Source of the DNA: a virus
Taxonomy: Duplodnaviria; Heunggongvirae; Uroviricota; Caudoviricetes
Length of the DNA: 31,480 bases
Strand: one strand, 5' to 3'
IMG/VR virus record: IMGVR_UViG_2531839484_000009
Part shown: positions 1,936 to 31,480 of the stretch, in pieces
Layout: the number at the start of each line of letters is the position of its first letter
Position numbering within the stretch: the stretch's first letter is position 1
Program-made: the position numbers and the translations under genes
The notes under the pieces: generated by a model
What the model was told of the DNA's origin: nothing
Seen by the model: the letters and a program-made list of their open reading frames with translations, nothing else
Database searches by the model: none

Positions 1936-1936
1936 T

Positions 1937-3685: not shown

Positions 3686-3756
3686 TTATTATATTTTAGG
3701 CGTGGTGATTTTTTTTCGCCATGCCTATTTTATATTTATCATCACAATGATGTTGT

Positions 3757-4173
3757 TTATTTTTGTTTAAGTCTTCTAAGCTTCATGCATTCTAATGAGA
3801 ATAATAATAGAGTTGTGCTGTATATAAAGCCAGAGTTAGTTAATAACTTTAAATTTAATGCTTCAGGATTTTCACTGAGAAAGTGAAAGGCATAAACTAA
3901 GTATACAGCTAAAGTAGCCGTTCCAATTGTTGGTCCAATATCGCCTTGATCATGAGGTTCAAGGTTTACATTGAACTTGAAGATTAGCCATTCAAATCCC
4001 CAAGTAAAAAAAACAACTAATATCATGGCTGCGAATAATTTCGCGATGTTATCTGCTGATGGATTCATCAGAACAGATTGTTTCTGAAAAAATTCACAAA
4101 GTGAGAGTCCGAAAAAAATAAAAAAAAGTGGTCTGGAACTAAATTTTTCAAAAACTTTGAATAGGGTTTCCAT
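3757..4173 (-). CDS. Small integral membrane protein (several hydrophobic helices), function unknown
   Basis: 138-aa ORF with hydrophobic stretches LFFIFFGLSL, AAMILVVFFTW, ATLAVYLVYAF, LLLFSL; AT-rich; convergent with the kinase/receiver pair. Confidence 0.4.
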   Translation of the reverse strand: METLFKVFEKFSSRPLFFIFFGLSLCEFFQKQSVLMNPSADNIAKLFAAMILVVFFTWGFEWLIFKFNVNLEPHDQGDIGPTIGTATLAVYLVYAFHFLSENPEALNLKLLTNSGFIYSTTLLLFSLECMKLRRLKQK

Positions 4174-4211
4174 TTTCTTTACCTTCAGGATTATATTAGC
4201 TATTCTGATAC

Positions 4212-5441
4212 TTAGGCTACCAGAGCATTTGATCTTTGAGCTTGAACGTAATCACTCCACCATTGCATCAAACTCTGTCGCTCTATCAGATATTCTGCAC
4301 GATTGTATGCTGCGATAATTTCATCTTTTTTCGAGTGGGCAAGCGCTGCCTCAAGAACTTCAGCTCTGAATTTACCAGACTCCTCTGCCGCTGTTCGTGC
4401 AATAGAACGCATACCGTGAGCTACAAGCTCGCCTCCGAACCCCATTCGGATGATAGCTGCGTTGGCTGTTTGTTCATGCATATGATTAAGAGGCGCTTTT
4501 ATGCTGGGGAAAACCCATTCTCTATGCCCACTTATTGATTTCATTAATTCAAGGATGCGCAAAGCTTCTTTACTCAAAGGAACTTTGTGAAGCTTTTTCA
4601 TTTTCATGAAATCAGCAGGAATGTTCCAAATGCTGTTGGTTGTATCAATATCAGACCACCTTGCGCGAACGGCTTCACCCGGACGAACCCATGTCAACAA
4701 TTGCCATTCAATTAGCATACGTGTTTCCAACCGGATTGACGCATTCGTCAAAGATTCCATAAACCTTGGCAATTCGCTTGGGGGAAGGGCAGGCATATTT
4801 TGCTTTTTTGGTTTACTGAATCTTTGACCAAGGTTGTCAGCCGGGTTGAACTCAATAAGTTCTTCAGTAGCTGCCCACCGGAAGATTTCATTCAGACGTG
4901 AAATGATACGGCGTAGAGTTTCCAATACGCCTCGTTGCTCAATAGGATCAAGGTGTTGTTTTAAGAGCTTAGGTCGGATCTCATTGATAGGGACATTACC
5001 CAGACCGGGAAAGACATTTCTCTCTAAGCTGCGCCAGATGTCTGCTGCATGGTCTTGTGAGATACCTGATGTCTTTACCTTCTCATCTAACCATTTCCGC
5101 GCTACGGCTTGGAGAGTGTGCTCAGTAGCACTCTTTAATGCCTTCGCCTTATCGTTGTTATGGATTTGGGGATCAACACCATTTGCCAGAAAGGAGAGAT
5201 ATTCATCACGTAAGGCTCTGGCTCTTGCAAGGGTAAGGTGAGGATATGTCCCAAGGCTCATTTTGGTTCTTTTCTTGCTCACTGGTACTGCATACCTGAA
5301 ATACCAATTTTTCTTGCCTCCTTTCGCCAAAGGAGCGATTCGTAGAATCAGACCATCACCGTCAAACAAGTTGATTTCTTTATCGGCTGGCTTGGTGCTT
5401 TTGATTTCAGTGTCAGTGAGCTTCTTAGCGATTTTTGCCAT
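4212..5441 (-). CDS. int: Tyrosine integrase, P4-like family with N-terminal arm-binding domain
   Basis: N-terminus KLTDTEIKSTKP...LFDGDGLILRIAPLAKGGKKNWYFRY is typical of P4-type integrases; C-terminal catalytic region HGMRSIARTAA. Start ATG 5441 has GAGGG upstream; ATG 5483 is an alternative in-frame start. Confidence 0.85.
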   Translation of the reverse strand: MAKIAKKLTDTEIKSTKPADKEINLFDGDGLILRIAPLAKGGKKNWYFRYAVPVSKKRTKMSLGTYPHLTLARARALRDEYLSFLANGVDPQIHNNDKAKALKSATEHTLQAVARKWLDEKVKTSGISQDHAADIWRSLERNVFPGLGNVPINEIRPKLLKQHLDPIEQRGVLETLRRIISRLNEIFRWAATEELIEFNPADNLGQRFSKPKKQNMPALPPSELPRFMESLTNASIRLETRMLIEWQLLTWVRPGEAVRARWSDIDTTNSIWNIPADFMKMKKLHKVPLSKEALRILELMKSISGHREWVFPSIKAPLNHMHEQTANAAIIRMGFGGELVAHGMRSIARTAAEESGKFRAEVLEAALAHSKKDEIIAAYNRAEYLIERQSLMQWWSDYVQAQRSNALVA

Positions 5442-5538
5442 TTTGGGACCCTCGGTTTTTGGACCCTTCTTAGTGGGTCCCATTCAGGGTGCCATAACTC
5501 GTAGTTCTCAGCAATTCTCACTGGACGACAATAGACGT

Positions 5539-5767: not shown

Positions 5768-6799
5768 TCAATCGCGTCTCAGCTGGGGTAAGCGAGACAT
5801 CTTGGCGGGTTGATAAGCTATAGTGATCAAGAACTGAGAATACTTGAACCAATTCTCTAGAATCCCTTCACCATATATCAAAATTTTATCTTCTATAGGG
5901 AAGTACAAGTTTACCACTTCATTTCTGCAAGTATCCAAGAAGGCGTAGGTTATCTCTTCTAAGGATTGCAGTGATTCGTACAGAGTGCCAAAATCATAAA
6001 ATGGTGAATAAACTTGGTATTTATTATAACTATCATTTATTACAAATGACTTTTTATAATGAAATCCACCTAAACACAACAGTTTACAAGTTTTTTCATA
6101 AATAATCATAACTCCTACAAATATTCTCATCTTTGTTGTGCAAAGTTCCTCTGTAGGATGTATTTGATTTTCACTCTCGGATAATTGCTTGAGTCTTGCG
6201 TTGATTTCTACCCAACATTTGTGTAAATCAATAACAAATTGCTCATTAATATCTAATTGTTGAGAATCATCAGGCGTAGATTGTGGGTATGCTTTTCTAT
6301 ATAGTTCTTGTGGATGTTTTATAAAATGTTGGTAGATTGCTTCAGCTTGAGCTTCCTGAACCGGGTAGTAGCTGCCTATTCTTTTTCCTTCGATTTTTTT
6401 ATATAAATCAAGATGAAATTTCATGTGGTTGTAATATAAATCTACCCTGTTTTTCCTTTCTGCCTCTGAGATCTGTTTTTCTGTTTGTTTGGTTCTGTGT
6501 AGGTTGTTTACTATTGAAACTAAAGGTACTGCAGATGCAAGGATGAGTAATGGTAATTTCGAGATATCTAAAAATCTCTCATAACCGTGACTTGTAAGAC
6601 TAAAAGAGTGTATTTTATCTATCCAGACAAAAGAACCAAAGTAAAGGCTGGTGAATAAAGGTAGGCCTATTGCAGCCCAGAACAAGGGTTGTTGGAACAA
6701 GCTTCTATGATCGAGAACATAAAGTCGATATTTTATAAATAAGAATATACAACCTAATAAAACGGATAGGTACATAAATGTGCTAATGCTTTTTTCCAT
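5768..6799 (-). CDS. Membrane-anchored hypothetical protein (N-terminal TM helices plus ~250-aa soluble domain); prophage cargo between int and att
   Basis: ATG 6799 lies 2 nt after the int stop (6802-6804) on the same strand; N-terminal hydrophobic segments YLSVLLGCIFLFI, LFWAAIGLPLFTSLYFGSFVW, LPLLILASAVPLVSIV; AT-rich relative to int. Confidence 0.5.
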   Translation of the reverse strand: MEKSISTFMYLSVLLGCIFLFIKYRLYVLDHRSLFQQPLFWAAIGLPLFTSLYFGSFVWIDKIHSFSLTSHGYERFLDISKLPLLILASAVPLVSIVNNLHRTKQTEKQISEAERKNRVDLYYNHMKFHLDLYKKIEGKRIGSYYPVQEAQAEAIYQHFIKHPQELYRKAYPQSTPDDSQQLDINEQFVIDLHKCWVEINARLKQLSESENQIHPTEELCTTKMRIFVGVMIIYEKTCKLLCLGGFHYKKSFVINDSYNKYQVYSPFYDFGTLYESLQSLEEITYAFLDTCRNEVVNLYFPIEDKILIYGEGILENWFKYSQFLITIAYQPAKMSRLPQLRRD

Positions 6800-6801
6800 T
6801 A

Positions 6802-7821
6802 TCAGTATCCCAACATAGCCAGTGGATTTTTTGTTACAGCATCTTCTAAATGATCTGGCGAAAAATGAGCATAAACCATCGTCATTTTTATATCAGAGTG
6901 ACCAAGAATATCGCGTAGTACCAATATGTTTCCGCCATTCATCATGAAGTGACTGGCGAATGTATGGCGCAACACGTGTGTGCACTGGCCTTCAGGCAGG
7001 TCTATACCGGCTCGTTTTACTGCGCGCTCAAAAGCTTTTCTGCAGGGCGTGAATAGTTTCCCTCTGTTTTTGGGGAGTTCTTCATATAGCTCCTGAGATA
7101 TCGGTACGGTTCGGTTTTTCTTGCCTTTAGTTTTGGTGTAGGTGATCCGGTATTTTGATAATTGATGGCCCTGCAGGTTTTCGGCTTCACTCCATCTCGC
7201 GCCGGTGGCCAGACATATTTTTGCAACCGTCAGCAGACTAGAGCTTTGAGAATCGGCGCAGGCATCCAGCAGACGTTTAATTTCTTCCGGGGTCAGGAAC
7301 GCCAATTCACTCTCAGCAATTTTAAATGTTGGCAGCCCAGCAAGCGGGTTGGGGGCTGACCAGTGGCCCAGCTTTTTCAGTGTACCAAAAACAGATGATA
7401 GATTGCGCTGTTCAAGGTTTACCGTGCGGGGCTTAACGGGCGACATAAACGTGCCATCTTCATTTCGTACTTCACCTTTTAACCGTGCTTCGCGGTATTT
7501 CGTAAAGTCACCGGCTGTCAGTTCTGAAGCGATGGGATCGCCTAGACCATTACAGATAATACTAAGTTTCGCCATGAGGCGCTTGGGGTCTGTGAGTGTT
7601 TGACCATACAGGGAATACCACAGCTCAATTAATTCTGATAGATGTCGCCGATCTTCCTTTTCCCCCAGCCATGGTTTTTTGTTCACTTCTTCCATTGTGA
7701 AGCTTTCAAATGCAATAGCTTCGCCTTTGGTAGCAAATTGCTTACGCACGCGCTTACCATTGCGTCCATTGGGATAGCACTCACACAACCATTTTCCGTT
7801 CGGCTGTTTTCTGATGGTCAT
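6802..7821 (-). CDS. int: Tyrosine integrase, P2/186 type
   Basis: 339 aa; C-terminal catalytic region HVLRHTFASHFMMNGGNILVLRDILGHSDIKMTMVYAHF; located downstream of the repressor gene as in P2/186. Confidence 0.9.
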   Translation of the reverse strand: MTIRKQPNGKWLCECYPNGRNGKRVRKQFATKGEAIAFESFTMEEVNKKPWLGEKEDRRHLSELIELWYSLYGQTLTDPKRLMAKLSIICNGLGDPIASELTAGDFTKYREARLKGEVRNEDGTFMSPVKPRTVNLEQRNLSSVFGTLKKLGHWSAPNPLAGLPTFKIAESELAFLTPEEIKRLLDACADSQSSSLLTVAKICLATGARWSEAENLQGHQLSKYRITYTKTKGKKNRTVPISQELYEELPKNRGKLFTPCRKAFERAVKRAGIDLPEGQCTHVLRHTFASHFMMNGGNILVLRDILGHSDIKMTMVYAHFSPDHLEDAVTKNPLAMLGY

Positions 7822-10176: not shown

Positions 10177-10403
10177 TGGCTGATGCAATGGATCTCGTAC
10201 AGCAGCGCGTTGAAGAAGAACGCCAGCGCCATATCCGTTCTGCCCGTGCCAAAACGCCGGGCGTGTCCCGCGTGCTTTGCATTGAGTGTGAAGCGCCAAT
10301 TCCGCCAGCACGCCGCCGCGCCATTCCGGGTGTGCAGCTTTGCATTACCTGTCAGGAAATCGCAGAGCTGAAAGGCAAACATTACAACGGAGGTGCTGTA
10401 TGA
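10176..10403 (+). CDS. TraR/DksA-family C4 zinc-finger protein
   Basis: CIECEAPIPPARRRAIPGVQLCITCQ, a four-cysteine C-x2-C...C-x2-C pattern; 75 aa. Confidence 0.7.
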   Translation: MADAMDLVQQRVEEERQRHIRSARAKTPGVSRVLCIECEAPIPPARRRAIPGVQLCITCQEIAELKGKHYNGGAV

Positions 10404-11257
10404 GCACCATCCTGAAATGGGCGGGAAATAAAACCGCCATTATGTCCGAACTGAAAAAGCATCTTCCTGCTGGCCCGCGACTGGTTGAACCTTTCGCGGG
10501 TTCCTGTGCAGTGATGATGGAGACGGAGTACCCCAGCTATCTTGTTGCGGATATTAATCCTGATTTAATCAACCTCTATAAAAAGGTTGCTGCTGATTGT
10601 GAATCGTTTATATCTCGCGCCAAAGCTTTATTTGAGGAAGCAAACAGGGAGGTGGCTTATTACAACATAAGGCAGGAGTTTAATTACTCAACTGAAATTA
10701 CTGATTTCATGAAAGCGGTATATTTCCTGTATCTCAATCGTCACGGTTACCGTGGTTTATGTCGCTATAACAAGAGCGGGCATTTCAACATTCCCTACGG
10801 TAATTATAAAAATCCGTATTTCCCTGAAAAAGAAATTCGCGCATTTGCAGAAAAAGCCCAGCGAGCAACGTTTATCTGCGCCAGCTTTGATGAAACGCTG
10901 GCGATGTTGAAGGCGGGGGATGTGGTGTATTGCGATCCGCCGTATGACGGTACGTTTTCCGGCTATCACACTGATGGTTTCACTGAAGATGACCAGTATC
11001 ACCTGGCATCCGTTCTTGAACATCGGTCATCAGAAGGACATCCGGTCATTGTTTCTAACAGTGACACATCCCTGATCCGTTCGTTGTATCGCAATTTCAC
11101 CCACCACTACATCAAAGCAAAACGCAGCATCGGTGTGGCAGCTGGCGAGGGTAAATCAGCAACAGAAATCATTGCTGTTTCCGGGCCGCGCTGCTGGGTG
11201 GGATTTGATTATTCGCGTGGCGTGGACAGTTCTGCCGTGTACGGAGTACGTGCATGA
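10400..11257 (+). CDS. dam: DNA adenine methyltransferase (Dam family, orphan)
   Basis: N-terminal ILKWAGNK and catalytic DPPY motif ([12 protein letters not shown]); start ATG 10400 overlaps the upstream stop. Confidence 0.9.
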
Positions 11258-13668
11258 GTCATGCCGATATGAACAACTGCTGCGGCTTTAACGAGGCTGC
11301 CGCAGCATTCTCATGGAACAGCCCGAAAAAGGCCATTAACCCTTATCTGGACCCGGCGGAAGTTGCGCCGGTTTCTGCGCTTTCAAACCTGATCACTCTG
11401 TACGCTGCCGATAACGAGCAGGAACAACTGCGCCGCGAGGCACTGAGTGATCAGGTCTGGGAGCGTTATTTCTTTAATGAATCCCGTGATCCTGTCCAGC
11501 GCGAAATGGAGCAGGATAAGCTAATTAGCCGGGCAAAGCTGGCGCATGAGCAGCAGCGTTTTAATCCGGACATGGTCATTCTGGCGGATGTCAACGCTCA
11601 GCCTTCCCATATCAGCAAGCCGCTCATGCAACGTATTAAATACTTCAGCAACCTGGGCAGGCCAAAGGCTTATTCCCGCTATTTGCGTGAGACGATTAAG
11701 CCATGCCTGGAACGACTGGAGCATGTACGCGACAGCCAGCTATCTGCATCTTTTCGTTTTATGGCAAGCCATGAAGGGCTGGACGGTCTGCTGATCCTGC
11801 CTGAAATGAGTCAGGATCAGGTGAAACGCCTGTCCACCCTTGTCGCTGCGCATATGAGCATGTGTCTTGATGCCGCTTGTGGTGATTTGTACGCCTCCGA
11901 TGATGTTAAGCCGGAAGAAATCCGCAAGACATGGGAAAAGGTGGCAGCAGAAACCCTGCGACTGGATGTCATACCGCCTGCGTTTGAGCAACTCCGCCGG
12001 AAAAGAAACCGCCGCAAACCTGTGCCCTATGAACTCATTCCGGGTTCGCTGGCGCGTATGCTGTGCGCCGACTGGTGGTATCGGAAATTATGGAAGATGC
12101 GTTGCGAATGGCGGGAAGAGCAGTTGCGTGCTGTCTGTCTGGTCAGCAAAAAAGCATCTCCCTATGTCAGCTATGAAGCCGTGATGCATAAACGTGAGCA
12201 GCGCCGTAAGTCGCTGGAGTTTTTCCGTTCTCATGAACTGGTGAACGAAGACGGCGACACGCTGGACATGGAGGATGTGGTAAACGCCAGCAGCAGCAAC
12301 CCGGCGCATCGCCGCAATGAGATGATGGCCTGCGTTAAAGGTCTGGAGCTTATCGCGGAAATGCGTGGTGACTGCGCCGTTTTCTACACCATCACCTGTC
12401 CGTCACGTTTCCATTCCACGCTAAATAACGGCAGGCCAAACCCGACCTGGACCAACGCGACAGTAAGACAAAGCAGCGATTATCTGGTCGGCATGTTTGC
12501 TGCATTTCGTAAGGCTATGCACAAAGCCGGATTGCGCTGGTATGGCGTGCGGGTGGCTGAGCCGCATCATGACGGTACAGTTCACTGGCACCTGTTGTGT
12601 TTTATGCGCAAAAAAGATCGCCGCGCCATTACTGCTTTGTTGCGTAAGTTTGCCATTCGTGAAGACCGCGAGGAGCTGGGGAATAACACGGGACCACGCT
12701 TTAAGTCTGAGTTGATTAACCCGCGCAAAGGAACGCCGACAAGCTACATCGCGAAATATATCAGCAAGAACATTGACGGGCGTGGTCTGGCTGGCGAGAT
12801 CAGCAAGGAAACGGGTAAATCTCTGCGTGATAACGCTGAATACGTGAATGCCTGGGCGTCTTTGCATCGTGTTCAGCAATTCCGCTTCTTTGGCATTCCG
12901 GGGCGTCAGGCTTACCGTGAACTGCGATTGCTGGCTGGTCAGGCGGCAAGGCAGCAGGGTGACAAAAAAGCAGGTGTGCCGGTACTGGATAACCCGCGCC
13001 TTGATGCCATTCTGGCTGCTGCTGATGCTGGTTGTTTTGCCACCTATATCATGAAGCAGGGAGGTGTACTGGTTCCCCGTAAATATCACCTCATCAGAAC
13101 TGCTTATGAAATTAACGAAGAGCCGACCGCCTATGGCGATCACGGTATTCGTATTTATGGCATCTGGTCACCCATTGCAGAGGGCAAGATCTGCACTCAT
13201 GCAGTGAAGTGGAAAATGGTTCGTAAGGCCGTTGACGTTCAGGAGGCGGCAGCCGACCAGGGCGCTTGCGCCCCTTGGACTCGTGGCAATAACTGTCCCC
13301 TTGCTGAAAATTTGAACCAACAGGAGAAAGATAAATCAGCTGATGGGGACCACAGAACGGACATTACCAGCATGGATGACAAGGAGTTGCACGATTACCT
13401 GCACAGTATGAACAAAAAAGAGCGCCGGGAACTGGCTGCAAGGGTACGCCTGGTGAAACCGAAACGGCGTAAAGACTACAAACAGCGAATTACAGACCAT
13501 CAGAGACTGCAGCTCGTCTATGAGCTGAAGTCCAGAGGATTTGATGGTAGCGAGAAAGAGGTCGATTTACTCCTTCGCGGCGGCAGTATTCCGTCAGGAG
13601 CAGGCTTGCGTATCTTCTATCGGAACCAGCGTTTGCGGGAAGATGATAAGTGGCGGAACCTGTATTAA
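11254..13668 (+). CDS. A: Replication initiation endonuclease (P2 gpA-like rolling-circle initiator)
   Basis: HUH-like VHWHLLCF and tyrosine motif [12 protein letters not shown]; 804 aa; position after dam. Confidence 0.85.
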
Positions 13669-14635: not shown

Positions 14636-16606
14636 ATGATAAGAAATATATATATAAAGAATTTTAAAACATTAAATATGACATCATATATCGAACTTAA
14701 AGAATGTTCATTTTTGTGTGGCGCTAACAGTAGTGGTAAAAGTTCACTTATACAAACACTTCTAATGTTAGCTCAAACTTTTTCTAATAGATATCAAGAT
14801 GATAGTATGGTTTTAAATGGGTCTTTAGCAAGACTGGGTTCATTTACAGATATCAAAAAGCACAACTCTACAGAGGAAGTTATTACTATTGGTTTCACTT
14901 TTGATGTTGATGAGGCGTATTATCTTCGTGATAATACAATAAATTCAATTAGATGTGAGTTTGTTATTGGTAGAAGAGACCGCTCTGTAGCAAAAATAGA
15001 CGAAGATTATCATCCTATAATAATTTCTGCGAAATATTTTATTAGTAAGGGGGGGAATAATAAACAACAGGATTATATACACTTCCAATGTTCAGGTGAT
15101 TATTTTTATTCTAAAGAAGTGGTATATGACGTAGTGTCATTCAACACCTCTGAATATAATGATTTGAAGAAGAGGTTTCCAAGTCTAAAGATTTTAAGTA
15201 TTGCTAAATCTGGGGATTTAATTCCTTCTTTAATAAATATTCAATATGATAAAACAAAAAAAGAAAGCTATGAAATAATTAATTTTTTAACTAGAAAGCA
15301 TAGCACACAGAGGGGGGGGTATTTTTTAGATGATGAGGATTTTGGTGATGATATTCTTATCCCTAGAGAATTCTCCGCAAGAGTTTTGGAGTTGATAAAG
15401 GAAGAACGTAATAAATTATTGGACGAGTTTGACTTGCCAAACGATCTTCTTGACATCATGACACATAGTCATATTGCTAAAGATGATTATATCTCCTATA
15501 GCTATGACAAAAATAAATTATCGCAGAGAGCTAAGGAATTATTAAACGAAATTAAAGGTAATTTCATTGAAATAAACTATTCTTTACAATCAAGTGATAT
15601 TCCTTTAATTTTTGTAAATAAAGCTGTTAGTATAGTTGATTGGAAATCTTGGTTAGATGCTTTGGATGAGAAGAAAAGGAAAAGTTTAATCGTATTGTTA
15701 GAAAAGCACAGGGACAGTCTACAAGCAATATGGTATAACAATATTGATGTTAAAATGACAAGCGACGTATATAGTTCGCACCTTTTACAAGATGTAGAAA
15801 ATGCAATGGTGTACTGTTTCTCGCGAAGCCTAAAGTACCTTGGGCCTCTACGACATGAACCTCAGGCTGTCTATTCATCGAGCCCTTATGATGCAAACAC
15901 CGTAGGTTTGAAAGGTGAATTTACCGCCTCTCTTCTTCATCGAAATCGCGCTAATTTTATATGTTACAGCTCCCCTTCTATAATTAATGGTAAAATAAAC
16001 GTTAGAGAAAAGTATGATACTCTAAACAACGCTTGTAAAGAGTGGTTGTCATTTTTAGGTGTTGTTGAGGAAGTAAGAACTACTGATAAAGGTAAATTAG
16101 GCTATGAGTTATACGTTAAAACTTCTAGCGGCGAAAAATGGCAAGATCTCACTCACGTAGGTGTTGGTGTCAGTCAAGTACTGCCTATTGTATTGATGTT
16201 CTTGAATTCAGATCCTTCAGATGTGTTAATTTTTGAACAACCGGAATTACATTTACATCCTAAAGTTCAATCTAAATTATGTGACCTTTTTCTTATAATG
16301 GCAAATACTGGTCGCCAGTGCATTATTGAAACTCACAGTGAGTATATGATCAATAGATTGAGGCTTAGAGTTGCGCAAGATTTAGACAATAATTACCTCA
16401 AAAAATCAGCGCTATATTTTATAAATAAAGTTAATGGGATATCAGAATTCCAAAATATAAATATTAACAAGTATGGTGCGATTCCTGAATGGCCTGAAGA
16501 TTTCTTTGATCAAACAGATAAGGAAGTTGAAAAGATTTTAATGGAGGCAAGCATAAAGAAAAATAAAGAAAAAGCTAAGAGGTTTACCAATGACAGCGGT
16601 TATTAA
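14636..16606 (+). CDS. ABC/OLD-type (AAA_15/AAA_21-like) ATPase with Walker A and Walker B separated by ~500 aa
   Basis: Walker A GANSSGKSS near the N-terminus; Walker-B-like VLIFEQPELHLHP and H-loop-like IIETHS near residue 530-560; strongly AT-rich. Confidence 0.7.
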   Translation: MIRNIYIKNFKTLNMTSYIELKECSFLCGANSSGKSSLIQTLLMLAQTFSNRYQDDSMVLNGSLARLGSFTDIKKHNSTEEVITIGFTFDVDEAYYLRDNTINSIRCEFVIGRRDRSVAKIDEDYHPIIISAKYFISKGGNNKQQDYIHFQCSGDYFYSKEVVYDVVSFNTSEYNDLKKRFPSLKILSIAKSGDLIPSLINIQYDKTKKESYEIINFLTRKHSTQRGGYFLDDEDFGDDILIPREFSARVLELIKEERNKLLDEFDLPNDLLDIMTHSHIAKDDYISYSYDKNKLSQRAKELLNEIKGNFIEINYSLQSSDIPLIFVNKAVSIVDWKSWLDALDEKKRKSLIVLLEKHRDSLQAIWYNNIDVKMTSDVYSSHLLQDVENAMVYCFSRSLKYLGPLRHEPQAVYSSSPYDANTVGLKGEFTASLLHRNRANFICYSSPSIINGKINVREKYDTLNNACKEWLSFLGVVEEVRTTDKGKLGYELYVKTSSGEKWQDLTHVGVGVSQVLPIVLMFLNSDPSDVLIFEQPELHLHPKVQSKLCDLFLIMANTGRQCIIETHSEYMINRLRLRVAQDLDNNYLKKSALYFINKVNGISEFQNININKYGAIPEWPEDFFDQTDKEVEKILMEASIKKNKEKAKRFTNDSGY

Positions 16607-17615
16607 ATTTGAATATTTAATATCTCCATTGATATGCACTGGTGGGCAGGTAGATGAGCATGTCAATGGTCTGCGATTATTAAAAGAATTAGTTAGTAGT
16701 TCTGACATAGACGTCAAATGCGAGGACTCCATACTCAGCAATATGCAAGAGGCTGGTTATTATCCATGTGCTAAAATATTGAGTAGGGCATTCCCTGGTG
16801 GTGAAGATTGCGTTCATAGCGCTCAAGATGTTTCAAAAATAATAAATAATATAATTAGCCATTTCGAAGAGTGCAATCCTGAAGTTACTTCTCATGAAAT
16901 CGAGTGGGACTCGTTTACGGTTGTGCCGCCTATAGAAACAATATCAGATGAGAGAAAAAATAATGTCGAAATTTTCTTGAGGAATATTCTTTCAAGAAAA
17001 TTTCTATTAAGTGAAGAGTTTTCTTTCTTTTATTCTCAAAGAAATAAGCCAATTCTTCAGTCCCAAAAGTTTTCATTAAGCGGTACAATTAGCGATATAT
17101 ACCCTGCGGATAGTGTAGCAATACCCATTGAATTAAGTAATGAAATAATTGCTCACGGTAATATTAATGATTTCATCAATAATATTGATGGGTACTCTTT
17201 ATATAAAATGGCTAGTAATATATCCGCTCTTAAATGTGCTCTCTTTTTTGGTTGTGTAAATTTTTTGAAAAATAATTATACAGGTGAAAAGTTCGAATGG
17301 GATGATTTCAAAATAGGAGCAGATTTTTTTGATTCGTTGCTAAGACATCAAGGTGCTTTTGAACAAGAGTTTTCCTCAGTAGTTTATGAAACTATAGTGC
17401 AAGTTTTATGTCGCCATCCTAAAAATGAAGTAAAACCATTTAGAGTATCTTCCAAGTCTACTGAACAAAGAACCCATGGTGATTTAAGGGCCTTTCGCAC
17501 CCATATCACTTCTAGACATCAAGCATTGAGACTAATGTTTTGGGTTGATTCCAATCAAATAATCACATTGGCAAATATTGGTCCGAAATTTGAAGAATCT
17601 ATTTCTTTGCCATGA
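16590..17615 (+). CDS. Uncharacterised partner protein of the ATPase (341 aa), putative effector
   Basis: ATG 16590 overlaps the ATPase gene by 17 nt, AGAGG 8 nt upstream; no recognisable HNH or clear TOPRIM motifs; C-terminal RAFRTH / RTHITSRH fit an Rx4-6H pattern. Confidence 0.5.
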   Translation: MTAVIKFEYLISPLICTGGQVDEHVNGLRLLKELVSSSDIDVKCEDSILSNMQEAGYYPCAKILSRAFPGGEDCVHSAQDVSKIINNIISHFEECNPEVTSHEIEWDSFTVVPPIETISDERKNNVEIFLRNILSRKFLLSEEFSFFYSQRNKPILQSQKFSLSGTISDIYPADSVAIPIELSNEIIAHGNINDFINNIDGYSLYKMASNISALKCALFFGCVNFLKNNYTGEKFEWDDFKIGADFFDSLLRHQGAFEQEFSSVVYETIVQVLCRHPKNEVKPFRVSSKSTEQRTHGDLRAFRTHITSRHQALRLMFWVDSNQIITLANIGPKFEESISLP

Positions 17616-17620
17616 GATAA

Positions 17621-17645
17621 GCCCCTCTCAAAAGAGAGGGGCTTT
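17621..17645. terminator. Bidirectional hairpin terminator between the cargo cassette and portal gene Q
   Basis: Perfect stem GCCCCTCTC-aaaa-GAGAGGGGC followed by TTT; overlaps the last codons and stop of Q. Confidence 0.55.
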
Positions 17646-18659
17646 ATTAAACTTAATAATATCTACACCAACCCATTCATTGATCTCAAAAAACCTGCAT
17701 TGAAGGCTTTTTATTTCATTGTTGAAAAATACTTTTGCTGCCTTCTCCACATCCCCAAACCCACCAACATTGTTAGGCATGATCCCCATCATCTGCGGCG
17801 GTACGCGGTGCGCTGCCAACATGTCATCCCGGCTCACGTTCTTGATATTCAAAAACTCATCTTTTGCCGCAACTTCTGACAATGGGATGATCTGAAGCCC
17901 GTCCTTTTTGCCGTTAGGTGAGTACATAAACAGGTTGCGGAAGTTGCCTGGCCCTTTGGCGCTTTTCATTGCGTTACGGAGGTTGTTCACGTCCTCCTGG
18001 TTCTGCGCGGCATCGGTCATGTACATGATGAAGCCTGCATGACTACCGTTAATGTAATACTTGCGGCGGAACAGCGTGGCGGACTCGTTGAGCAGGGCCG
18101 ACGGAATGGCAGAAAGATAACCGGGCAGGCCGTAGACCTCCTGGTTGATGTCCGGTTCCATCAGATGAAAAACGCTGCCTTTCGTGAACTGATACGGCTG
18201 GGTTGTCATACCATATTGCACAAACCAGTAGGTATCCAGGTCTAATCCGCGTCGGGTGTATTTTGCCAGAGCAGGCTCAAGGGCGATAACTTCACCGAAC
18301 CGGTTCGTGCGTTTCTCCAGGTAGGCGTTACCAAATACCAGATAGTCCTGCACAAAACGTGAAAAAGCCTGCTGGCTGAGCAGCGGGTGAGGGATGTAGG
18401 TGCTGGTCAGAATGTTGCATTTCACCGCAATGGGTGAGTTGTGATGTACGGCGGCGCGGAAGATGCGCGCTAGGGCGTCGAAACTCACAGGCGGCTCATA
18501 CCAGCGATCTGTCTGTACACATTCCACATAGTCCAGCAGTTCGCGGCGGTCCAGTACTGGAATGGGATCACCGAAGCTGAATGCCTCTGCTGAAGTCTGG
18601 CTTTTATGCTGGGTCTGGTTCTGCGACGCAGCGCGGTTCTTCTTACTCTTTCCCATCAA
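17628..18659 (-). CDS. Q: Portal protein (P2 gpQ-like)
   Basis: 343 aa, directly downstream of and overlapping (ATGA) the terminase large subunit gene; P2 late-operon synteny. Confidence 0.85.
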   Translation of the reverse strand: MMGKSKKNRAASQNQTQHKSQTSAEAFSFGDPIPVLDRRELLDYVECVQTDRWYEPPVSFDALARIFRAAVHHNSPIAVKCNILTSTYIPHPLLSQQAFSRFVQDYLVFGNAYLEKRTNRFGEVIALEPALAKYTRRGLDLDTYWFVQYGMTTQPYQFTKGSVFHLMEPDINQEVYGLPGYLSAIPSALLNESATLFRRKYYINGSHAGFIMYMTDAAQNQEDVNNLRNAMKSAKGPGNFRNLFMYSPNGKKDGLQIIPLSEVAAKDEFLNIKNVSRDDMLAAHRVPPQMMGIMPNNVGGFGDVEKAAKVFFNNEIKSLQCRFFEINEWVGVDIIKFNKAPLF

Positions 18660-25933: not shown

Positions 25934-26372
25934 ACTGCAGAAGGTGGACGACTGGCTGAGTGCTTTGCTGGCGAATCTGGAACCAGCCGCAAGAAGCCGC
26001 ATGATGCGGCAGCTGGCGCAGGAACTGCGCCGGACACAGCAGCAGAATATCAGAATGCAGCGCAATCCAGATGGCAGCAGTTATGAACCTCGACGGGTAA
26101 CAGCACGCAGTAAAAAGGGGCGCATCAAACGTCAGATGTTTGCAAAGCTGCGCACCACAAAATACCTGAAAACTGCCGCCAGCGCCGACTCTGCCAGCGT
26201 ACAGTTTGAAGGTAAGGTGCAGCGTATTGCCCGTGTTCACCATTACGGCCTGCGTGATCGCGTCAGTCGCAAAGGACCGGAGGTCCGTTACGCAGAGCGC
26301 CGCCTGCTGGGTGTAAATGATGATGTTGAGGCAATGACCCGCGACATGATTCTGCAATGGCTGGCGGGGTGA
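25926..26372 (+). CDS. S: Tail completion protein S (P2 gpS-like)
   Basis: 148 aa, position after R. Confidence 0.7.
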   Translation: MAELQKVDDWLSALLANLEPAARSRMMRQLAQELRRTQQQNIRMQRNPDGSSYEPRRVTARSKKGRIKRQMFAKLRTTKYLKTAASADSASVQFEGKVQRIARVHHYGLRDRVSRKGPEVRYAERRLLGVNDDVEAMTRDMILQWLAG

Positions 26373-26376
26373 TCTT

Positions 26377-26394
26377 TGTATCAGCACTGATACA
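26377..26394. promoter_or_regulatory. Late-promoter activator box TGT-N12-ACA upstream of V
   Basis: TGTATCAGCACTGATACA, part of the palindrome TTTGTATCAGCACTGATACAAG, 47 bp upstream of the V start. Confidence 0.5.
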
Positions 26395-26440
26395 AGTTGC
26401 AGCACTGCCGCCTTTCTTCCCCTGATGGCAACCTTTCCCT

Positions 26441-28270: not shown

Positions 28271-28868
28271 TCTGCTGCCACAGGGTTCAACACCACTGGA
28301 GCGCCGACTGGCGCAAACCTGCAGCGGGATTTCTGATCTGCAGGTGCCGCTTCGTGACTTGTGGAATCCGGCAACCTGTCCGGTCAGTTTCCTGCCTTAT
28401 CTCGCCTGGGCGTTCTCTGTGGATCGCTGGGACGAGGGCTGGACAGAAAGCGTCAAGCGCCAGGTGGTGAAGGATGCTTTTTATATTCATCAGCATAAAG
28501 GGACCACCAGTGCCGTGCGGCGGGTGGTGGAGCCGTTCGGCTTTCTGATCCGCATTATTGAGTGGTGGCAGACCGGAGAGGCACCGGGCACGTTTCGCCT
28601 GGATATCGGCGTGCAGGACCATGGCATCACTGAAGATACCTATCTGGAACTTGAGCGACTGATAAGCGATGCCAAACCATGTAGCCGCCACATGATCGGC
28701 ATGTCCATCAATCTGCAGACCAGCGGCCCGCATTGGGTGGGAGCCGCCAGCTATCTTGGCGAAGAAATCACGATCTATCCGTATATCAACGAAACGATTA
28801 TTTCCGGTGGCACCGCGCATGAAGGCGGGGCGGTCCATGTTATTGACACAATGAGAGTGAATCCATGA
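28263..28868 (+). CDS. I: Baseplate/tail protein I (P2 gpI-like)
   Basis: 201 aa, overlaps J stop and H start. Confidence 0.75.
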   Translation: MNSLLPQGSTPLERRLAQTCSGISDLQVPLRDLWNPATCPVSFLPYLAWAFSVDRWDEGWTESVKRQVVKDAFYIHQHKGTTSAVRRVVEPFGFLIRIIEWWQTGEAPGTFRLDIGVQDHGITEDTYLELERLISDAKPCSRHMIGMSINLQTSGPHWVGAASYLGEEITIYPYINETIISGGTAHEGGAVHVIDTMRVNP

Positions 28869-30256
28869 GCACAAAATTTTATACCCTGCTGACGGATATT
28901 GGCGCGGCGAAACTTGCCAGCGCCGCCGCGCTCGGTGTGCCGCTAAAAATTACCCATATGGCGGTGGGCGATGGCGGCGGAGTATTGCCAACGCCGGACG
29001 CAAAGCAGACGGCACTGGTAAATGAGAAACGCCGGGCTGCGCTGAATATGCTTTATATCGACCCGCAGAACAGCAGCCAGATTATTGCTGAACAGGTGAT
29101 CCCTGAAAACGAGGGCGGTTGGTGGATACGTGAAGTGGGCCTGTTTGATGAGTCCGGGGCATTGATTGCCGTGGGAAACTGCCCGGAAAGCTATAAGCCG
29201 CAACTGGCTGAAGGCAGCGGGCGTACCCAGACCGTGCGCATGGTGCTGATTACCAGCAGCACGGACAATATCACCCTGAAAATCGACCCTGCTGTAGTGC
29301 TGGCAACCCGTAAATACGTGGATGATAAAGTCCTGGAATTAAAGCTGTATGTGGATGACCAGATGAGAAACCACATTGCCGCACAAGATCCTCATACCCA
29401 GTATGCGCAGAAACATAATCCGACATTTACCGGAGAACCAAAAGCGCCGACGCCTGCAGCAGGAAATAACACCACGCGGATTGCGACCACTGAGTTTGTT
29501 CAGGCCGCTATTACTGCTCTGATTAACGGTGCGCCAGCCACGCTGGACACACTGAAAGAAATTGCCGCAGCCATTAACAATGACCCGAAATTCAGTACCA
29601 CCATTAACAATGCGCTGGCACTAAAAGCACCGCTGTCGAGTCCGGCACTCACCGGAACGCCAACAGCACCTACTGCGGCACAGTCGGTCAACAATACACA
29701 GATTGCCACTACAGCTTTTGTGAAATCAGCGATTGCAGCAATGGTGGGTTCTGCACCTGCGGCACTGGATACACTGAACGAACTGGCGGCGGCACTGGGG
29801 AATGATCCGAACTTTGCCACGACAATGCTTAATGCGCTGGCAGGTAAACAACCGCTGGACAGTACGCTTACCAATTTGAGTGGAAAGGATGTAGCTGGTC
29901 TTCTCGCATACCTTGGTTTGGGAGAAGCCAGATATGTCATTCAGCGAGGAGCTAATGCCAATGGTGCATGGATACGCTGGTCAGATGGTGCAATAGAAGT
30001 ATTTGGAACCAGTGGATCTAATGATAATGGACTGGCTAAAGTTGTTTACCCAATTGCACTGCCTAAACTTTCACGTTTTATCAGTATCGCGGAAAGAATA
30101 AGAACGGATTACGAGAGCACACCTAATAATGTTCACGTTTCAATGATCGTGGATGATCAGGTAACAAATACCGGCTTTTATGCCCGCTGCCAGATGTACG
30201 ACGGCAGACCATCATCAAATGCTTTTTCCTGGAGGGTTTATTGTGCGCCTGTTTAA
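28865..30256 (+). CDS. H: Tail fibre protein H: conserved N-terminal region joined at an invertase crossover site to an AT-rich variable C-terminal domain
   Basis: N-terminus MSTKFYTLLTDIGAAKLASAAALGVPLKITHMAVGDGGG as in P2-family tail fibres; composition shifts after the crossover site at 29901-29926. Confidence 0.85.
   Translation: MSTKFYTLLTDIGAAKLASAAALGVPLKITHMAVGDGGGVLPTPDAKQTALVNEKRRAALNMLYIDPQNSSQIIAEQVIPENEGGWWIREVGLFDESGALIAVGNCPESYKPQLAEGSGRTQTVRMVLITSSTDNITLKIDPAVVLATRKYVDDKVLELKLYVDDQMRNHIAAQDPHTQYAQKHNPTFTGEPKAPTPAAGNNTTRIATTEFVQAAITALINGAPATLDTLKEIAAAINNDPKFSTTINNALALKAPLSSPALTGTPTAPTAAQSVNNTQIATTAFVKSAIAAMVGSAPAALDTLNELAAALGNDPNFATTMLNALAGKQPLDSTLTNLSGKDVAGLLAYLGLGEARYVIQRGANANGAWIRWSDGAIEVFGTSGSNDNGLAKVVYPIALPKLSRFISIAERIRTDYESTPNNVHVSMIVDDQVTNTGFYARCQMYDGRPSSNAFSWRVYCAPV
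29901..29926. repeat. 26-bp near-palindromic crossover site of the Gin/Hin/Cin/Pin DNA-invertase type, inside gene H
   Basis: TTCTCGCATACCTTGGTTTGGGAGAA: 20 of 26 matches to the recalled hix site TTATCAAAAACCTTGGTTTTCAAGAA; an inverted copy begins at 31467. Confidence 0.6.
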
Positions 30257-30440
30257 TCCAGTTACTTTGACTGAAGTAATCCCCGGTCTTCATGACGTGA
30301 CCGGGGCTATTGAATTACCGGAGGACAACTGGTTTTTTACTATGACAGAAATTCCTCAGGGCATGGAGCTAACAATTAATGAGAAAGGCGAACCAATACT
30401 AATTGAGGTTAATCAGTCTCAGGGAGTACAGGCCAAATAA
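30243..30440 (+). CDS. Short ORF downstream of H, possible truncated or minimal tail-fibre assembly chaperone
   Basis: GTG 30243 preceded by GGAGGG; 65 aa; lacks the conserved tail-fibre-assembly C-terminal domain; overlaps the convergent tfa gene by 32 bp. Confidence 0.3.
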   Translation: MRLFNPVTLTEVIPGLHDVTGAIELPEDNWFFTMTEIPQGMELTINEKGEPILIEVNQSQGVQAK

Positions 30441-31014
30441 TATCAGGCGCGGTGCTGGTATCTGTTGCCGTCACCGCGTCAGTGTAATCCAGCACAGCGT
30501 TAAGCCGGGTTGTTTCTGCCTGCGTCAGTTTCCGCCCGGCCTGTAATTTCAGCTGAATCAGACTAATGGAAGCCATTGCTGCATCAATCAGTGACTGACG
30601 CTGTGCTTCTGCCGCTTCTACTGCGGCACCGTGTTGTGCCTCAGTATCCGTCACCCATTTCTCACCATCCCATTTATCGTATGGCGTTAATGGGGCGATA
30701 GTGGTTGTATTATCAGGGTAATTACCCGGAGCTGTGATTTCTTTTGATTCTCCTGTTGCGGTGCTAAAGACGATTTCACCGCGATGGTCTGGCACATATT
30801 CCCATGAGTTAAAATCTGCAGAACGGCAGATTGCATAACCAGCTTTGTATGCGCCTGGAGCATCTAAACAGGAACATGCCGGAATGCCGACACCAACGGC
30901 AAGATATTCAGTCGATATGGAAATATATTCCCGTGTTTCACCATCATAATTATAGACAGTAATATTCCCCGCCTTCGTGGCAATAAACTCGCTATTTAAT
31001 ACAGTGCTATCCAT
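30409..31014 (-). CDS. Tail fibre assembly protein (Tfa / Mu U / P2 gpG family), inverted orientation
   Basis: C-terminal region RLNAVLDYTDAVTATDTSTAPDIIWPVLPE matches the conserved Tfa C-terminal pattern as recalled. Confidence 0.8.
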   Translation of the reverse strand: MDSTVLNSEFIATKAGNITVYNYDGETREYISISTEYLAVGVGIPACSCLDAPGAYKAGYAICRSADFNSWEYVPDHRGEIVFSTATGESKEITAPGNYPDNTTTIAPLTPYDKWDGEKWVTDTEAQHGAAVEAAEAQRQSLIDAAMASISLIQLKLQAGRKLTQAETTRLNAVLDYTDAVTATDTSTAPDIIWPVLPETD

Positions 31015-31480
31015 TATGCAGCCCTCACAATGTAGTTAAATGCGATGTTGCGTGGACGGACACCGAAATAAGAAGTAACACCATTCATTGTCAAATTTCC
31101 AGAGCCAAAAGCGGTAAAACCAGAACCAGCATTAACTGCCGAATCCGCGTTTCTGACAAAGTTTTTGGGAGGTGAACCGGAGACACCAGCCGAAATATCA
31201 TCAGCATTACCGCCATTGCCGTGGTGGTTAGTTATCTTTGTTTCCGCCTGCGCCGTCAACAAACCTCGTCCAGAGTCAACCCCGCGCCCGTCATCCCAGC
31301 CGCGAATAAACTCACCACGTAAATCAGGCAATTTATTTGTCGGATAAGCCTTTGCCAGTTCCGGGTATTCTTCAGCAGAAAAAGCCGCGCCGTTGCATTT
31401 CAGCCAGCCTGTTGGCGGAGTGGCGGAAGGCCATGGAACAGGGACACCAACGGGTAATGCAGAGCCTTCTCCCAAACCAA
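31014..31480 (-). CDS. Alternative tail-fibre variable C-terminal domain (H'v), inverted orientation; 5' end beyond window
   Basis: PVGVPVPWPS...PPTGWLKCNGAAFSAEEYPELAKAYP resembles P2 H / Mu S C-terminal domains; reading frame continues through the inverted crossover site at the window end, encoding LGLGE as in H. Confidence 0.75.
   Translation of the reverse strand, partial: GLGEGSALPVGVPVPWPSATPPTGWLKCNGAAFSAEEYPELAKAYPTNKLPDLRGEFIRGWDDGRGVDSGRGLLTAQAETKITNHHGNGGNADDISAGVSGSPPKNFVRNADSAVNAGSGFTAFGSGNLTMNGVTSYFGVRPRNIAFNYIVRAA
31467..31480. repeat. Right-hand inverted copy of the invertase crossover site (first 14 nt only; truncated by window end)
   Basis: TTCTCCCAAACCAA equals the start of the reverse complement of the 29901-29926 site. 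Confidence 0.55.

Follow-up and report, generated by a model that had tools for sequence, protein, structure and literature searches.

Does the tail-fibre gene near the right edge of this prophage end in a switch that exchanges one fibre tip for another, and if so, can the switch still turn? The window, by which we mean the whole stretch of 31,480 nt analysed here, carries a near-palindromic sequence inside gene H and stops within what looks like an inverted copy of it. The original prediction, made from the letters alone, took these two sites for the ends of an invertible segment of the Mu G type, driven by a serine invertase whose gene should lie just past the edge. We are highly confident that the region is an invertible tail-fibre segment of a P2-like (Peduoviridae) prophage, working like the G segment of Mu and the C segment of P1. 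The P2-type late tail cluster order V-W-J-I-H-(G)-FI-FII-E-T is found in the annotations of EC43, N44 and Cartapus and by Pfam on the relatives SRR32900406 (L009) and GCA_020168635.1 (L011); the window also has P2-type integrase, CI repressor, portal, terminase and capsid genes.

Two crossover sites flank the end of gene H

The features of the region, in window coordinates, are as follows.

28865..29912, + strand: Sc, the constant part of tail-fibre gene H (Pfam Phage_tail_fib, residues 1-150, 4e-65)
29901-29926, inside H: left crossover site, cix/gix-like, TTCTCGCATACC-TT-GGTTTGGGAGAA, with core TT at 29913-29914
29927..30256, + strand: Sv, the tip in the window's orientation (PHROG phrog_2557, 7e-15)
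30243..30440, + strand: 65-aa ORF downstream of Sv (phrog_5400, 2e-25; RefSeq WP_001440573.1)
30409..31014, - strand: Tfa, tail-fibre assembly protein, 201 aa (Pfam Caudo_TAP 6e-32; phrog_105 1.5e-96)
31014..31466, - strand: Sv', alternative H C-terminus with a collar domain (Pfam Collar 8e-15; phrog_523 1e-67)
31467-31480: right crossover site, inner half and AA core, the window's last base being the last core base

The left site is the 26-mer TTCTCGCATACCTTGGTTTGGGAGAA, read on the + strand; its two 12-nt halves are symmetric about the TT core at 10 of 12 positions, and in the H frame it codes for LLAYLGLGE. The window ends with TTCTCCCAAACCAA, the exact reverse complement of the left site's inner half-site and core. 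The complete right site, TTCTCCCAAACC-AA-CGTTTAAGAAAA, which had been expected to the right of the window, is indeed present in full just beyond the edge in SRR32900406, GCA_020168635.1 and contig L014. The description of the edge sequence as an inverted copy of the left site holds exactly for the inner half and the core but not for the outer half, CGTTTAAGAAAA, which lies past the window edge and is unlike the left outer half, yet within the family consensus.

We scanned for sites with the invertase-family consensus TTCTCNNAAACCNNGGTTTNNGAGAA, allowing at most three mismatches. There was one match in the window and two in the extended relative L001, with one mismatch for the left site and two for the right; shuffled sequence gave none (0/100 window shuffles and 0/200 L001 shuffles). 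When up to five mismatches were allowed, the same consensus recovered exactly the annotated cixL/cixR of P1 and gixL/gixR of Mu, and in the prophage loci scanned it found two sites each and no others. The two-site observation, including the near-palindrome noticed inside H, is correct and far beyond chance. Because the inner halves and the TT/AA cores are identical, inversion regenerates both sites and preserves the H frame through LGLGE; the left site keeps its sequence unaltered on inversion.

Two cassettes encode alternative fibre tips

Between the cores lie 1,568 bp with two cassettes that converge on each other: the first is the H tip Sv followed by the 65-aa ORF, and the second, on the opposite strand, comprises the Tfa gene and the collar-type tip Sv'. 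All four elements that had been read between the sites are found there: an AT-rich variable domain of H, a short ORF, an opposite-strand Tfa-family gene and an alternative fibre C-terminus whose frame reads L-G-L-G-E on through the right site. Sc lies outside the invertible segment and is joined to whichever tip faces it. In the window the H ORF spans 28865-30256 and encodes 463 aa (Sc plus Sv); in GCA_020168635.1 Sc is identical at 1048/1048 positions (100%) and is fused to the other tip, giving an H of 504 aa, so that H is a long open frame in both orientations.

Sv has a GC fraction of 0.436, against 0.533 in the constant part, and is without a match in a Pfam search. Its AlphaFold2 model (pLDDT 81) finds by Foldseek the R2/R1 pyocin fibres 6ct8, 6cxb and 6cl6 (E 1e-4 to 6e-4, TM 0.59) and also AP22 gp53 (4mtm); Sv is thus modelled as a beta-sandwich of about 110 aa resembling the foot domain of R-type pyocin fibres. 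The 65-aa ORF overlaps the stop of H as well as the convergent Tfa gene, the latter at its 3' end. Its match to phrog_5400 covers the first 66 of 145 profile positions, Pfam and NCBIfam searches with it returned no match, and a homologue occupies the same position in the invertible segment of phage S164; the ORF may encode an assembly partner of the Sv tip.

Tfa pairs with Sv' and is silent in the window's orientation; in flipped genomes it comes directly after the 504-aa H. Fusions of Sv' to Sc are found in N44, HBUT-L and GCA_020168635.1, and the flipped H matches T4 gp37 (2xgf, 1.6e-15). Whichever tip is silent picks up a start codon from the right flank, and many annotations list such tips as proteins in their own right, of 126-127 aa and 167-168 aa. 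NCBIfam holds no specific model for either the invertase or the cassettes.

Both orientations occur in public genomes

The flipped orientation, which the prediction had held out as a possibility, exists in nature. In-silico inversion of the window at both cores yields a sequence that GCA_020168635.1 contains exactly, over 2,923 nt, and Escherichia coli EC43 treated in the same way becomes N44 with 0 mismatches over 3,401 nt, inversion being the sole difference between these two genomes over 3.4 kb. The natural breakpoint falls at the left site. E. coli W and HBUT-L share an IS3 insertion and have opposite orientations; the IS3 lies inside the segment in E. coli W derivatives, and that copy still flipped. 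Contig L014, oriented like the window, differs from it at 2 of 2,923 nt. Public genomes show precise natural inversion at the core dinucleotides.

A junction census of complete E. coli genomes found the window-type junction at 99% identity or more in 6 records and the flipped junction at 100% in 7. The flipped-junction query matched 535 genomes, and only matches of at least 99% identity were counted, because fixed collar-type H genes also match this query. Among complete E. coli genomes, the best match to the last 10.5 kb of the window reaches 97.4% identity. In one metagenome contig the segment has the right flank on either side. We considered the window's end exactly at the core as proof of mixed orientations in the culture, and rejected it: the left junction is unbroken.

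In matching contigs, a serine invertase and a candidate enhancer lie past the edge

The window stops at the right core, and the invertase was read in contigs identical or nearly identical to it. There the anticipated gene starts, with its ATG, 68 nt after the right core, and encodes a serine invertase of 188 aa of the Gin/Cin type; it is intact in GCA_020168635.1 and L014, and is also present in EC43. The protein is hit by the Pfams Resolvase (2e-53) and HTH_7 (1e-15) and by phrog_125 'DNA invertase' (9e-101), matches the Gin structure 3uj3 at 8e-93, and keeps Ser9 (VRVSTNDQ). Its identity is 100% with the invertase that Cartapus phage encodes, 86% with that of Fels-2 and 79% with P1 Cin.

Two Fis-type sites occur in the invertase gene, at nt 23-37 and 71-85, 48 bp apart; the consensus used, KNNYRNNWNNYRNNM, is loose, matching at 1 in 128 per position. 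The sites stand at equal gene positions in this invertase, Cartapus, Mu gin and P1 cin, and fall inside the enhancer annotated in the P1 record (cin nt 19-90). The spacing of the Fis sites in the hin enhancer, and its distance of about 97 bp to the nearest crossover site, agree with those here (PMC3798978). Since the coding sequence is strongly conserved and the Fis consensus is loose, the two-site enhancer at the 5' end of the invertase gene is a candidate that rests on homology.

A model for switching

Invertases of this family suggest how the segment would work. Invertase dimers would bind both sites and be activated by Fis, itself bound to the candidate two-site enhancer within the opening 90 nt of their gene, and the invertase would cut at the 2-bp cores and rotate, leaving the 1,568 bp flipped. 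With the segment as in the window, the product of the late operon would be the 463-aa H, tipped by the pyocin-foot-like domain, and after it the 65-aa ORF; once the segment is flipped, the operon would give the 504-aa H, whose collar tip resembles T4 gp37, and then the Tfa assembly protein. Since the folds of the two tips, pyocin-foot-like in one and gp37/collar-like in the other, are unrelated, different receptors are likely. The virions of one lysogen would carry one of two receptor specificities, a form of host-range bet-hedging. We infer from the family both this change of host range on inversion and, likewise, Fis dependence and inversion rates.

Comparison with known systems

The element is of a well-known kind, like the G segment of phage Mu. 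As predicted, the architecture is that of Mu: layout and spacing match the series S-U / U'-S' / gin, with the order Sc / site / Sv-U, U'-Sv' / site / invertase and an invertase gene that reads outward from the segment. From core to ATG there are 67 nt in Mu and 68 nt here, gixR and the right site align base by base, and the likeness extends to the Gin structure match and the gene positions of the Fis-type sites given above. Mu differs in its longer segment (about 3.06 kb, against 1.57 kb here) and its core (TC/GA rather than TT/AA), whereas here the backbone is P2-like and one cassette consists of a pyocin-foot-like tip and the 65-aa ORF instead of a full S/U pair.

P1 shares with our element the half-site consensus, the core dinucleotide (cixL ...AAACC-TT-GGTTT..., cixR ...AAACC-AA-GG...), an invertase 79% identical, and the two conserved Fis-type sites covered by its annotated enhancer. 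In contrast to the invertase here, which points away, cin is transcribed towards its segment, with cixL overlapping the cin 3' end, and the C segment is 4.2 kb. The e14 P segment with Pin (PinQ/PinR) and Salmonella Hin belong to the same invertase group and use 26-bp sites. Like the present segment, that of e14 switches Stf/collar-type fibre ends; e14 itself is lambdoid and defective. What Hin inverts is a promoter, not a coding end, and hin lies inside its own segment; its two-site Fis enhancer has the same spacing as the candidate here.

Closest in backbone, and in position between H and the sheath gene FI, are the invertible segments of P2-like phages and prophages: Fels-2 (fin), two in EPEC E2348/69, Cartapus, pro483, 500465-1 and S164. 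Cartapus has both sites the same as well as the identical invertase, but carries two Tfa genes of about 135 aa and other tips. Inversion has been reported for Fels-2, whose fin is 86% identical to our invertase (PMC7953296), and has been shown by sequencing and PCR for the EPEC prophages (PMC4272514). One of the EPEC prophages has three repeats and four variants, in contrast to the two sites and two states here.

Alternative explanations

The segment is flanked by inverted repeats, as it would be if RecA-dependent homologous recombination between them made the inversion and the recombinase gene were incidental. We consider this extremely unlikely: the perfectly identical stretch, 14 bp, is much shorter than RecA needs to recombine efficiently; the repeats fit the 26-bp invertase-site consensus, which recovers the mapped cix and gix sites; and the recombinase, whose gene occupies the gin position of Mu, shares 75-86% identity with proven invertases. 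Still less credible is that the near-palindrome and its partial inverted copy arose by chance, or that assembly errors created the two orientations. The locus clearly confuses short-read assemblers, as the hairpin-like contig L019 attests, and both the window and contig L020 stop exactly at the core; against this, consensus matches are absent from shuffled sequence, both orientations are present in RefSeq assemblies of 'complete genome' level whose sequence is otherwise identical, and both yield the long H frames of 463 and 504 aa. A different objection concerns purpose, namely that the switch in lysogens works mainly for the host's benefit, one orientation's fibre-derived protein blocking the receptors of other phages. 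Such blocking has been reported where invertase and Stf/collar segment are both related to those here, in that e14 StfE2, after PinQ-driven inversion, blocks the receptors of other phages (PMC12529663), and the start codons gained by the silent tips, with their annotation as separate proteins, would fit. However, the prophage appears complete, with H in its late morphogenetic operon, and a scan around the right site and the invertase found no promoter for the silent fragments and none distinguishable from chance for the invertase, sigma-70-like sites being no more numerous there than in shuffled sequence. We regard this host-serving role as improbable. Equally improbable, in our view, is that the segment goes beyond a host-range toggle, whether through receptor-blocking defence in lysogens or, more mildly, through Sv and the 65-aa ORF forming a Tfa-independent receptor-binding module. 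If lysogens did express one orientation or a silent tip, this would be a phase-variable defence like that of e14 StfE2/PinQ.

The alternative that deserves most attention leaves the invertible segment in place and holds that the window's own copy is a frozen switch, its invertase and cis enhancer destroyed (for instance by IS26) and its fibre fixed as Sv. SRR32900406 matches the final 2,800 nt of the window at 100% identity and is the only retrieved contig that encodes the window's exact H protein; in it, the terminal repeat of IS26 follows nt 55-56 of the invertase gene, whereupon the contig ends. The IS26 separates Fis site I from site II. Because it cuts the invertase gene and splits the candidate enhancer, the copy in SRR32900406 is probably locked, and in two further backbones with the same segment (L012 and L016) the invertase has been lost or shortened. 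However, the exact flipped form in GCA_020168635.1 and the near-identical L014 both have the intact 188-aa invertase, and the window ends before the IS26 insertion point. Moreover, invertases of the Gin/Cin/Pin/Hin group from other prophages can act in trans (PMC12529663), although a split enhancer would still cripple the reaction. We take a frozen copy in the window to be a real but somewhat doubtful prospect, and retain an invertible segment as the reading of the region.

Implications for annotation and assembly

The main practical value of the locus is for annotation and assembly; it opens no new biological question. The 'hypothetical proteins' of about 126 aa and the 'phage tail proteins' of 167 aa annotated beside these invertases are silent halves of one fibre gene, and host-range prediction for P2-like prophages must consider both tips. 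Short-read contigs can stop exactly at a crossover core. The natural variants (intact copies, the IS26-cut copy, invertase-deleted copies, and the copy that carries IS3 yet is flipped) may offer ready controls.

Crossover sites and invertase

The evidence supports a Gin/Cin/Pin/Hin-class invertible tail-fibre segment at the right end of the window, in an arrangement known from P2-like prophages; crossover sites, an invertase and both orientations bear out the original prediction of a Mu/P1/e14-type element. Both the type of element and the way it works are textbook knowledge; we found no paper on this exact cassette pair, and the E. coli W genome paper is silent on it (PMC3032704).

The left crossover site, TTCTCGCATACCTTGGTTTGGGAGAA, lies at 29901-29926 on the + strand, within the 463-aa ORF of the tail-fibre gene H (28865-30256), whose residues 1-150 are a P2 gpH-type Phage_tail_fib domain (4e-65). 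Its 12-nt halves are symmetric at 10 of 12 positions about a TT core. Read as its reverse complement, the final 14-base stretch of the window (31467-31480, TTCTCCCAAACCAA) equals the left inner half-site plus core exactly. The complete right site, TTCTCCCAAACC-AA-CGTTTAAGAAAA, was read in three contigs (L009, L011 and L014) that reach past the window edge, found by look-up of the exact H and exact Tfa proteins. Within it, the inverted copy of the left site is confined to the inner half and core. Since the two inner halves form perfect inverted repeats, both sites come out of an inversion intact. Scanning with the invertase-family consensus TTCTCNNAAACCNNGGTTTNNGAGAA at up to three mismatches gave one match in the window and two in its extended relative L001, with none in 100 shuffles of the window or 200 of L001. 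At up to five mismatches, the positive control recovered exactly the annotated P1 cixL and cixR and the Mu G-segment boundaries, and only two sites were found per P2-like locus among the loci scanned. Position, consensus scan and shuffles thus confirm the near-palindrome in H and its inverted part-copy at the edge.

Contig L009 (contig 128 of SRR32900406) is identical to window 28681-31480 (2800/2800) and continues 152 nt beyond; L011 (GCA_020168635.1) and L014 (GCA_017163035.1) share its segment and right flank. A 188-aa ORF begins 68 nt past the right core, followed by the tail sheath gene FI. It matches Pfam Resolvase (2e-53) and HTH_7 (1e-15), phrog_125 'DNA invertase' (9e-101) and the Gin crystal structure 3uj3 (8e-93), and keeps Ser9; identity is 100% to the invertase of Escherichia phage Cartapus, 99.5% to that of Klebsiella phage KP12, 86% to that of Fels-2 and 79% to P1 Cin. 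Extension to the right, the check originally proposed, thus both completed the right site and reached a serine invertase, in contigs identical or near-identical to the window.

Segment content and the two fibre products

The segment features had been described accurately throughout, as judged by ORFs and Pfam matches:

29927-30256, Sv, the H variable tip; GC 0.436, against 0.533 in the constant part
30243-30440, 65-aa ORF; phrog_5400 (2e-25)
30409-31014, - strand, Tfa, 201 aa; Caudo_TAP (6e-32)
31014-31466, - strand, Sv', a collar-domain fibre end; Collar (8e-15)

The Sv' frame runs through the right site, encoding LGLGE, up to the window edge. In the window orientation the product is an H of 463 aa. 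Its Sv tip had no sequence match in Pfam or PDB, and an AlphaFold2 model (18 homologues, pLDDT 81, pTM 0.72) resembles the R1/R2 pyocin fibre foot domain (6ct8, 6cxb and 6cl6; E 1e-4 to 6e-4, TM 0.59) and also matches AP22 gp53. In the opposite orientation the product is an H of 504 aa, followed by Tfa, with a collar tip matching T4 gp37 (2xgf, 1.6e-15). Since the tip structures are unrelated, the switch alternates two structurally unrelated receptor-binding tips, and by analogy a difference in host range would be expected. Database homologues of Sv are mostly 'hypothetical proteins' of 111-143 aa that start in the right flank (MMPVSR..NVGLGEA); these are silent Sv copies in flipped genomes.

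The 65-aa ORF, which had no match in the Pfam scan, aligns with only the first 66 of 145 phrog_5400 positions and has 32 nt in common with the convergent Tfa gene. Phage S164 has a homologue at the same place. The ORF could encode a small assembly factor, or it could be what is left of a truncated gene.

Evidence of flipping

The segment flips, in near-identical and in identical copies, as had been predicted. The E. coli genome EC43, which has the window orientation, becomes identical to N44 over 3,401 nt (0 mismatches) when inverted in silico between the cores. Inverting the window itself, with 123 nt of L009 flank and cuts at TT (29913-14) and AA (31479-80), gave an exact 2,923-nt substring of L011, which has an intact invertase; L014, also with an intact invertase, has the window orientation with 2 mismatches. 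E. coli W and HBUT-L share the same IS3 insertion within the segment, with identical breakpoints, yet, relative to I/J and invertase/FI, their segments point in opposite directions; IS3 was thus already in place, adding ~1.26 kb to the segment, when it inverted. In a junction census of complete E. coli genomes, the window-type junction was found at at least 99% in 6 records and the flipped junction at 100% in 7. In metagenome contig L019 the segment is bordered by right flank on either side (1-104 is the reverse complement of 1673-1776), which needs both junction types in one sample. Sequencing and PCR have demonstrated inversion in P2-like E. coli prophages (PMC4272514), and it has been inferred for Fels-2 fin (PMC7953296).

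The IS3-family element lies just past the H stop (3077-4254 of the E. coli W locus, 2864-4041 of the HBUT-L locus) and changes how the 65-aa ORF begins; strains derived from W include both orientations of this enlarged segment. The segment is also near-identical and in opposite orientations in NZ_CP122451.1 (82.0312) and NZ_CP122454.1 (82.0311), two urine isolates whose strain names and accession numbers lie close together.

Likeness to Mu, P1 and hin

Gene order in Mu is likewise S(Sc+Sv)-U, U'-Sv', boundary and then gin, with a core-to-gin distance of 67 nt against 68 nt here, and Mu gixR aligns exactly onto the right site. Two matches to the Fis consensus KNNYRNNWNNYRNNM, 48 bp apart, occur at nt 23-37 and 71-85 of the invertase gene; Mu gin, P1 cin and the Cartapus invertase gene have them at identical positions. 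Both fall within the interval, cin nt 19-90, marked as the Cin enhancer in the P1 record. The interval doubles as conserved coding sequence, and the Fis consensus is a loose one. By homology, the 5' end of the invertase gene would carry a two-Fis-site enhancer. The right site is ~97 bp from the first Fis-type site; this distance and the 48-bp spacing agree with the hin enhancer, where Fis-site centres are 47 bp apart and the DNA loop is ~100 bp (PMC3798978).

Disrupted copies

In L009 the invertase ends after nt 55-56 and continues into GGCACTGTTGCAAATAGTCGGTGGTGATAA (L009 8684-8768, which would be window 31548-31632). Among the matches listed, that 30-mer has 19,250 occurrences spread over at least 5,000 plasmids, and it sits 34 nt upstream of the IS26 transposase gene; IS26 therefore truncates the L009 invertase and splits the two Fis-type sites. 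The window stops before this insertion point. Invertase can be supplied in trans by another prophage (PMC12529663), but even so the L009 copy is probably locked. Another P2-like backbone, seen in contigs L012 and L016 (5097-5510), also carries this 1.57-kb segment at 99.9-100% identity. Its H is 357 aa long and its outer half-sites differ; the invertase is missing or cut down to 80 aa, and the collar tip is locked into the expressed position.

Contig ends at the core

The window breaks off, at 31480, precisely where the right crossover core ends, and an independent assembly contig, L020 (GCA_036585925.1), starts at the exact mirror position (TTGGTTTGGGAGAAGG...). L019, flanked on both sides by right-flank sequence, is a MEGAHIT contig. 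Together these contigs suggest that assembly graphs branch at the core, possibly due to both orientations among the reads, although the left junction in the window is unbroken.

Other features of the window

5768-6799, - strand, 343-aa ORF at the end of the prophage, immediately downstream of the P2-type integrase (6802-7821)
10340-11257, D12-class N6-adenine DNA methyltransferase (Pfam 9e-78), in the prophage early region
14636-17615, 656-aa ATPase (AAA_15/AAA_21/DUF3696; PADLOC NsnB 4e-78, HEC-03B 3e-58) and overlapping 341-aa partner

The ATPase and its partner, the latter having no match, are a candidate two-gene anti-phage system. They lie between the replication gene (11254-13668) and a candidate portal gene (17628-18659, - strand), so called for where it falls in the P2 gene order. 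In P2-like phages this place is a known defence-cargo hotspot. The 343-aa ORF, with no match in Pfam or PADLOC, may be cargo. To the left of the prophage, 217-5483 looks like a separate integrated island adjoining it: overlapping genes encode a HEF_HK/HATPase_c protein of 572 aa and a Response_reg_2 protein of 588 aa, and after this pair comes a tyrosine integrase with an Arm-DNA-bind_3 domain (4212-5483, - strand). Cargo also varies at a second site in this family of prophages, the interval between S and V; EC43, N44 and relatives have a 924-bp reverse-strand ORF (WP_001350048.1) there (L001 1645-2741), where the window has only ~117 bp (26323-26440).
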